A stretch of 63,875 nucleotides of DNA, filler included, from Reclinomonas americana ATCC 50394 (lineage: Eukaryota): NCBI GenBank assembly GCA_048213135.1. It is 20 parts of 20 records of this genome, joined end to end, with 100 filler letters (N's around TTAATTAATTAA, not from the genome) between each part and the next. Parts side by side here need not be neighbours in the genome. Positions count along the whole stretch, not along the records: positions 53,264 to 55,493 come from AFZH01018131.1; 19 more parts are not named here. One strand, 5' to 3'. Below, one piece after another: positions 53,878 to 55,331 of the stretch. Position 1 is the stretch's first letter; each line of letters opens with the position of its first letter. The position numbers were made by a program, and so were the translations under genes. The notes beneath the pieces were generated by a model. The model worked only from the letters and a program-made list of their open reading frames with translations, was not told the DNA's origin and did no database searches.

Positions 53878-55331
53878 TTAGGTGCGGATGATGACCGACT
53901 GTAGGCGGAGGTGAGCACGAGAATGAGCTGCAAGTGACTTGGAAAACGAAACACACACCTTGATCTCCGTGTACAGCCTGTAGTAATGCAGCACATAAGA
54001 GTGTGGAGTGAGTGACAAGTTAAACACGTAGAGAAAGACAAAAGGTGGAAACGAAACTGTTGCATCGGAACCGCAGCGAGAAGCACAGACGAATCAGTGT
54101 GAGCAACAACAGTGCGACGCCTGCCAGCAGCACGCAAAACGACGCACCTCGAGAGCGTACTCGCCGTTATCGCGGCCGACACCCGACTCCTTGAAGCCGC
54201 CAAACGGCATGTCGCTCAGGAACTCGTTGTAGCTGTGCGGAATAATGAGGGGAAGAGAGGGGGAAGAGATGGAAAGGAGATGGACGCACCAGTTGACCCA
54301 CACCGTGCCGGCGCGGACCTCGTCGATGAAGCGGAAGGCCTTGCCAATGTCTGTGATGGGTGATAAGGGAGGGGAAAAGGGAAAGGGGAAGGGAAAGGGG
54401 AAGGGGAAGGGAAGGAGACAAAGAGAGAGAGAGAGAGAGAGAAGAGAGAGGCGGGGAAAGGGTGGAACAGAGAGTCAGAAAGAGACAATGCGTGGTGGGA
54501 GTGAGAGGTTGAGCGACAGACAGAGACAGCGCCAGGATTGAAGGGTGGACCGGAGAGACAAGGAGGGGGGTAGAAAAGAGAGAGAAAGAGAGAGATTGAG
54601 TGGAACGAAAAACAGGGAGAGACAGAAAGCACAAAGAGCACAAACGCGAAGAGAAAAGAGCGAGCGCGAGAGACAGAAATCGTGGACAGGAGAGTTCTCC
54701 CGTATGGGAGACATACATGAAGAAAAGAGCGATGTTGCGTGCGTGAGAGAAATAGAGAGGAACTGACCCTTGGTGAGCACGGCAGCAGCGAGGCCTGCGA
54801 CGAATCAACAGTGAGTGAATCATCCCACTGCAGACAAGAGAGAGTGCAATCGGGGACGAACCAAAGTTGCCGCTGTTGGCGCGGTGAATGACCTGTGTAA
54901 TTGTGATAAAAGAGTTAGCGCACTGCAATACGAGAGGGGGAGCACATGGGAAGACAGCATCGCACCTCGTCAACGTCCGTGAAGCGCATGACGCACACGA
55001 CCGGGCTGCGCGGGGAGAGGAGATTTTAGAAGCAGAGAGGGCAAGAAAGGACACAACCAAACGCACCCGAAGATCTCCTCCTTGGCGATGGTCATGTCGT
55101 CGCTCACCTCGGTAAAGATGGTCGGCTGTCACCCGAAAGAGCTCAATGAGTGGAGGGAAAGGAGGGTTGAGGGGGTATAGTGAAGGAAAAAGGAAAGAGG
55201 AAGGGAAGTGTGTGACGGGAAGGGAGGAGAGGACACAGAGTAAAACGCGCACTCTCACAAACTGATTCACGCACGCACATACACACACAATGCACACACG
55301 TCGCTCACATACACTATAAAAGGGAAGGGCG

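Follow-up and report, generated by a model that had tools for sequence, protein, structure and literature searches.

The DNA analysed here, referred to as the window, is a stretch of 63,875 nt from Reclinomonas americana ATCC 50394, in which pieces of 2-6 kb are joined by spacers made up of 44 N, TTAATTAATTAA and a further 44 N. CT/GA-rich microsatellite sequence adjoins both of the spacers that were inspected closely (55494-55593 and 53164-53263). Gene order continues across the spacers, and the ALDH gene on the minus strand spans the spacer at 55494-55593 inside one of its introns. A coatomer alpha subunit gene is found at approximately 8060-3744 (minus strand), with exons of ordinary size, about 80-240 nt, and introns 59-74 nt long, the 13 confidently placed introns all being GT-AG; the N-terminal part of this model, upstream of 8060, is without alignment. 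Other gene fragments encode, in order, a calcineurin-like phosphoesterase (86-472, minus strand), leucine-rich repeats (11517-12065, minus strand), an RmlD/epimerase-type reductase (12409-12986, plus strand), a Tim10/DDP zinc-finger protein (14058-14327, plus strand) and an SLC35/EamA-type transporter (37572-38018, plus strand).

The ALDH gene was modelled at 53880-58796 (minus strand) as 29 exons and 28 introns, using spliced alignment guided by three full-length homologues (P0008, P0010 and P0002), all of which fit the model without gaps. The upstream limit of the model, 58796, is the start of the alignment and not a proven start codon. The similarity to ALDH proteins is colinear over the full length, as expected for a member of this family, and the Pfam domain PF00171 is present in all of the listed homologues. 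A homologue search with exon 27, its query lengthened to 40 aa with adjoining intron sequence, returned five matches, all from other organisms. The gene is extremely intron-dense, as its 28 introns interrupt approximately 1.5 kb of coding sequence, or about one intron per 17 codons. One of these, the 136-nt intron at 58688-58553 (minus strand), carries the 15-base sequence gtgacacaacacaca just after the donor and again at the acceptor end, and this direct repeat at both ends could be a mark of the origin of the intron.

Several of the ALDH exons are very short. The gene model contains exons of 14 nt (58002-57989) and 13 nt (57606-57594), while microexons of 8 nt (57811-57804) and 7 nt (57123-57117) are placed by homology, all on the minus strand. 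Microexons of 6 nt (56677-56672) and 5 nt (56586-56582), also on the minus strand, are confirmed at the protein level by P0007, and the splice sites on the two sides of the 5-nt exon, an acceptor and the following donor, almost touch. P0007 is a 147-residue EST-derived protein (source label EC793174.1.p1) that was retrieved by a protein search with a 71-aa ALDH exon. It is identical to the middle exons of the ALDH gene, indicating that public ESTs exist for the organism and that the gene is expressed. P0007 leaves the frame of the genome after ...EFVARS (56190-56079, minus strand). The genome agrees with the homologues at this point, and consequently the error is attributed to the EST and not to the assembly. 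After its own frameshift P0007 ends far upstream of the site that is the subject of this work.

This site lies between the last exons of the gene. Exon 27 (54148-54232, minus strand, 85 nt) ends in the codons for G-E-Y-A-L-E, the last of which is GAG at 54150-54148, and GEYALE is also found in the homologue P0002. On the other side, a G at 53977 is followed by exon 28 (53976-53959, codons L-Y-T-E-I-K), the two together occupying 53959-53977 (minus strand). The last intron of the gene (53899-53958, minus strand) is an ordinary GT-AG intron of 60 nt, after which the final exon encodes S-V-I-I-R-T and the stop codon.

Anatomy and reading frame of the candidate twin intron

On the minus strand, the GAG codon at 54150-54148 is followed by the donor gtgcgt, which starts at 54147, and the acceptor ctacag ends at 53978, after which come G 53977 and CTG TAC ACG GAG ATC AAG. 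The plain GT-AG piece between these sites (54147-53978) is 170 nt long, and its removal shifts the reading frame. Only one AGT is present within the piece (caacaGtttcg, with its G at 54057), and it splits the piece into two GT-AG units. Unit A (54057-54147, minus strand, 91 nt) runs from gtgcgt to caacag, and unit B (53978-54057, minus strand, 80 nt) runs from gtttcg to ctacag. The G at 54057 (minus strand) is shared, serving both as the last base of the unit A acceptor (caG) and as the first base of the unit B donor (Gtttcg). The outer flanks are also occupied by G, at 54148 before the first donor and at 53977 after the last acceptor. Two GT...AG units that overlap by one G and have a G on both outer flanks make up the [D1,2]/[A2,3] layout of a stwintron, and the frame behaves as this layout demands, since a one-step GT-AG excision is out of frame and removal in two steps restores the frame. 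The internal site does not have the form of a ratchet point, as the AG and GT of cAGttt share their G and no AGGT occurs inside the piece. No other copy of the 172 nt was found within the 64-kb window, and the sequence is not a repeated intron element there.

The junction that the protein requires was examined through the spacing of conserved motifs. Removal of 171 nt leaves six residues between the motifs SG.G[RK][ED].G and [YFW]...K, and the same spacing is found in 108/108 matched homologues; these are the proteins that fit the C-terminal motif pattern among 126 proteins examined, the other 18 not matching it. Spliced alignment leads to the same junction. When only GT-AG and GC-AG junctions are allowed, the alignment guided by P0008 stops at 54147, while those guided by P0010 and P0002 resort to a GC-AG junction of poor quality, at the cost of one additional residue. 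Once further junction types are permitted with a penalty, each of the three guides picks the 171-nt removal. The low-penalty non-canonical alignment also made spurious long 'introns' that skip EST-proven microexons, and it is informative at this site only. Across the approximately 1.5 kb of ALDH coding sequence, with its 29 exons, no other frame break is needed.

These results bear on most of what the original prediction had claimed for the site. The donor, the shared G, the acceptor, the flanking Gs and the unit lengths of 91 and 80 nt are seen exactly as it described them. Its statement that a single GT-AG excision causes a frameshift holds, as removal of 170 nt breaks the frame and alignment restricted to canonical junctions either fails or adds a residue. 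The claim that a 171-nt excision is colinear with ALDH proteins was likewise borne out, as this is the only removal giving the spacing of the 108/108 matched homologues. Finally, the GTTTCG donor was said to be used elsewhere in the window, and it is indeed found as a donor at 57803 (ALDH) and at 6846 (coatomer alpha). The further claim of the original prediction, that two-step splicing is obligatory, has the standing of a hypothesis, so that the prediction as a whole is partly supported.

Comparison of the two units with host introns

The units were compared with a reference set of 40 homology-supported introns from the window (27 ALDH and 13 coatomer alpha), from which position weight matrices were built. 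All 40 of these introns are GT-AG. Their lengths are 57-97 nt in 35 cases, and the other five measure 136, 138, 342, 417 and 763 nt. Units A and B, with 91 and 80 nt, are within the common length range, and a 170-nt intron would be in the empty gap between 138 and 342 nt. The unit A donor scores 9.3 bits (33/40 real donors are lower) and the unit B donor, GTTTCG, scores 5.5 bits (16/40 lower). On the acceptor side, unit A scores 2.4 bits with 10/40 real acceptors lower, placing it in the lowest quarter, and unit B scores 6.9 bits with 23/40 lower. The sites needed for removal of the 171 nt in one step score -3.6 bits (GG donor) and -13.6 bits (GG acceptor), and no real site among the 40 is lower in either case.

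Of the real introns, 37/40 contain a branch-like YTNAY motif; its distance to the 3' end is 9-30 nt in 35 introns and 37 nt or more in the other two. Unit B has the branch-like motifs CTTAT and CTCAC at distances of 18 and 31 nt, and the nearest such motifs in unit A, CTGAT and CTCAC, are 37 and 43 nt away from its 3' end. Unit B is typical of the host; unit A combines a strong donor and a normal length with a low acceptor and a distant branch-like motif. The strongest donor, that of unit A, and the better acceptor, that of unit B, together define the out-of-frame 170-nt excision, which would compete with productive splicing.

The frequency of comparable internal sites was assessed in both real and simulated introns. 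An internal AGT of at least equal quality on both sides is represented by 1 of the 32 found in real introns (3218 nt) and arises in 2.2% of 20,000 simulated 170-nt introns. With earlier matrices, built from 27 introns, the site stood out less, being equalled by 4 of the 23 internal AGTs and in 5.9% of the simulated introns. The internal site moderately exceeds chance.

A matrix-based scan of the window for intron pairs sharing a G returned five pairs against 1.7 expected, one of which is the ALDH site. Two pairs, at 57186-57047 and 8008-7844, overlap modelled exons. A third, at 35673-35494 in a Josephin-domain gene, was refuted by the gene model, in which ordinary GT-AG solutions exist. The apparent back-to-back introns of this gene (35750-35250, minus strand) vanish when the upstream exon is extended to the GTTGCG donor at 35659. 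The pair at 30144-30297 (plus strand) consists of intron-like units at 30144-30217 and 30217-30297 and falls among two overlapping or adjacent ORFs that have no Pfam match. No second confirmed twin-intron case was found among the pairs of the scan within the 64-kb window.

Comparative material and sequencing reads were also sought. A scan of metagenome contigs gave 80 loci, none above 65% identity, and no close relative whose introns could be compared. A search of sequencing runs with 53264-55493 returned 24 runs, each containing only 0.05-0.07 of the sampled words, and none that contains this organism. Four such runs compared with 53700-54360 gave only matches of 31-35 bases, all of them imperfect (3 mismatches or 2 gaps each) and confined to a pyrimidine-rich intron stretch at 54247-54280; no match reached the site.

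Proposed two-step splicing and its rivals

We put at about an even chance the proposal that the 172 nt at 54148-53977 (minus strand), judged from the DNA, are a [D1,2]/[A2,3] spliceosomal twin intron that would be removed in two steps. The anatomy and the frame logic are read directly from the DNA, and the splice signals and lengths are within the range of the real introns of the host. From these features we infer that the cell splices the site in this manner, and in two steps. In the proposed mechanism, two U2-type units, A of 91 nt and B of 80 nt, overlap at G 54057 and would be excised successively, in either order. If unit A were removed first, by the [D1,2] route, G 54148 would be placed before tttcg, creating the donor of an 80-nt second-step intron. 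If unit B were removed first, by the [A2,3] route, G 53977 would be placed behind caaca, creating the acceptor of a 91-nt second-step intron. By either route 171 nt would be lost and GAG (54150-54148) would be joined to CTG (53976-53974), giving the spacing conserved in ALDH proteins.

The short exons of the gene provide a setting for this proposal. With ALDH exons as small as 5-8 nt, the splicing of this gene already has to deal with introns that nearly abut. Two splice sites that nearly touch are presumed not to be engageable at once, and so the introns that flank such an exon are probably removed in order. The 'minus-one-nucleotide exon', in which the two units share one base, is the extreme of the ALDH microexon series. 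A broader, joint reading is that exons in this organism have no minimum length (in the ALDH gene 14, 13, 8, 7, 6, 5 nt and finally 'minus one'), that ordered, stepwise, intron-defined splicing is routine, that the site is the first twin intron outside fungi and that it is a live intermediate of one-nucleotide intron sliding; taken as a whole, this reading is possible but doubtful.

Four other explanations were considered. Three of them, namely an extra base at either GG from the assembly or in the allele, and direct non-canonical splicing in one step, would leave an identical picture in the DNA. In one, an assembly or sequencing error has introduced one G too many at 53978/53977 or at 54148/54147, and the site is a plain GT-AG intron that contains an internal AGT by chance. 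A change of a single base would explain everything, and it accounts for the frame break just as well as two-step splicing does; this is a draft assembly, interrupted by a spacer every 2-6 kb, the acceptor and branch of unit A are weak, and an internal site of such quality is reached by chance in approximately 2-6% of simulated introns. However, a two-base run is not an error-prone sequence context, and the absence of a second frame break from the approximately 1.5 kb and 29 exons of ALDH coding sequence speaks for the accuracy of the assembly here, as does the frame conflict with P0007, at which the homologues side with the genome. Furthermore, the 170-nt intron that results from the correction is matched by 0/40 reference introns, 35 of which are at most 97 nt long. 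On balance, such an error appears rather unlikely. Alternatively, the 171 nt may be removed in one non-canonical step, as GG-AG (54148-53978) or GT-GG (54147-53977), with the internal site remaining unused. This would produce the same in-frame mRNA, and the three guides do choose the 171-nt removal once non-canonical junctions are allowed. All 40 reference introns are nevertheless GT-AG, the GG donor and the GG acceptor both score below all 40 real sites, and a well-formed internal acceptor/donor pair would be left unexplained, making one-step removal a decidedly unlikely account.

The remaining explanations alter the protein. Another canonical junction could be used at the site, of which three kinds were found, all in frame and free of stops. 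A GC-AG intron at 54145-53978 (168 nt) adds one residue, for a seven-residue spacing, and is the choice of two of the three guides when only canonical junctions are allowed. Joining the GTACGC donor at 54160 to the 53978 acceptor is in frame with the loss of four residues, for a two-residue spacing, and an internal exon of 17 or 29 nt starting at 54056 adds six or ten residues. Each of these options, however, alters a spacing that is identical in 108/108 matched homologues, and the GTACGC donor would remove four residues that agree exactly with the homologue P0002. The GC donor scores -1.7 bits, with 1/40 real donors lower, and sits 2 nt downstream of the start of the 9.3-bit GT donor; assignment to the GC-AG intron class was rejected, as the donor lacks the strong consensus and the product has an extra residue relative to the 108/108 homologues. 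The donors of the internal exons score -0.7 and 1.5 bits, and one option requires an intron of 50 nt, a length below that of every one of the 40 reference introns. Small internal exons were rejected overall because every option adds residues or needs introns of 27-50 nt. Use of another canonical junction is consequently judged very unlikely. Finally, the allele or gene copy may truly carry an inserted base, a recent frameshift that would make it a young pseudogene or a broken allele with a mistranslated C-terminus; this is a highly improbable explanation. The break is only 12 codons before the stop, but the 27 other introns and 29 exons are intact, the gene is expressed as judged from the EST-derived P0007, and the conserved C-terminal residues are still encoded by the last two exons, with the relative frame correct.

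Significance and comparison with known systems

The proposed twin intron is of interest for several reasons. Twin spliceosomal introns are proof of splice-site pairing across the intron, and they offer a mechanism for the shift of an intron by one nucleotide. In the literature as far as it was available, the [D1,2]/[A2,3] arrangement has so far been proven only in fungi, and the ALDH site, if confirmed, would add a new lineage. Confirmation in an unrelated and very intron-dense eukaryote would show that short, intron-defined introns give rise to the arrangement independently wherever they occur. It would also caution annotators that an intron of apparent GG-AG or GT-GG type, or an apparent frameshift, can be real, and the ALDH gene would be a tractable one for the study of splicing order, with exons of 5-8 nt alongside. 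The microexon series, if confirmed, is the more general point of interest. Should the assembly contain an extra G, the site would be of no biological interest.

The original prediction knew of no earlier report of such splicing in this lineage. This fits the outcome of the literature search, in which the stwintron studies were all fungal by title and abstract, subscription journals being outside the search. Likewise, no spliceosomal twin intron in a protist appeared among the literature matches listed, which dealt with group I/II twintrons, U12 introns and the non-conventional introns of euglenids.

The anatomy matches well an intron type that is known but rare, and the closest known system is fungal. 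In the accessible text of Fekete et al. (2017; PMC5587772), a DHA1-family gene of Trichoderma reesei is described as containing an alternatively spliced [D1,2]/[A2,3] stwintron of 154 nt, made up of introns of 66 and 88 nt. The two introns overlap by one G, each outer flank also carries a G, and cloning recovered both intermediates along with the mature mRNA; an earlier [D1,2]/[A2,3] stwintron, from Helminthosporium solani, is cited in the same article (PMC5587772). The architecture named in the original prediction is the same as this fungal layout, as far as the article describes it. The T. reesei stwintron and the ALDH site share the one-G overlap of U2-type introns, the flanking Gs and the property that either order of removal gives the same mRNA, and their sizes are comparable (66 + 88 nt and 91 + 80 nt, respectively; PMC5587772). 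The T. reesei case has been demonstrated in RNA (PMC5587772), and the ALDH case is a candidate read from DNA. The signals also differ, as the donor consensus of the host (GTGCGT, GTTGCG) is not that of the fungal search pattern (PMC5587772). This pattern, which is tuned to Aspergillus, permits a distance of 4-24 nt from branch element to acceptor (PMC5587772), a rule that unit A would fail, its nearest branch-like motif being 37 nt away.

Two further systems, again as described in the accessible text of the articles cited, resemble the proposal in part. The ratchet points of Drosophila and vertebrates involve stepwise removal of an intron, in which the first step creates a fresh 5' splice site where the upstream exon has been joined, as is proposed here (PMC8605326, PMC6110457). 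Ratchet points consist of a juxtaposed acceptor and donor and are found in very long introns (PMC8605326, PMC6110457), whereas at the ALDH site the two overlap by one base, one exon base is consumed and the whole measures 171 nt. The single-nucleotide exon reported from Arabidopsis is similar to the ALDH site in that the introns are barely separated, so that recognition of the splice sites has to span the introns and not the exon (PMC4674806). In Arabidopsis, however, an exon base remains between the introns (PMC4674806), while at the ALDH site the base is shared by the two units and no exon is left.
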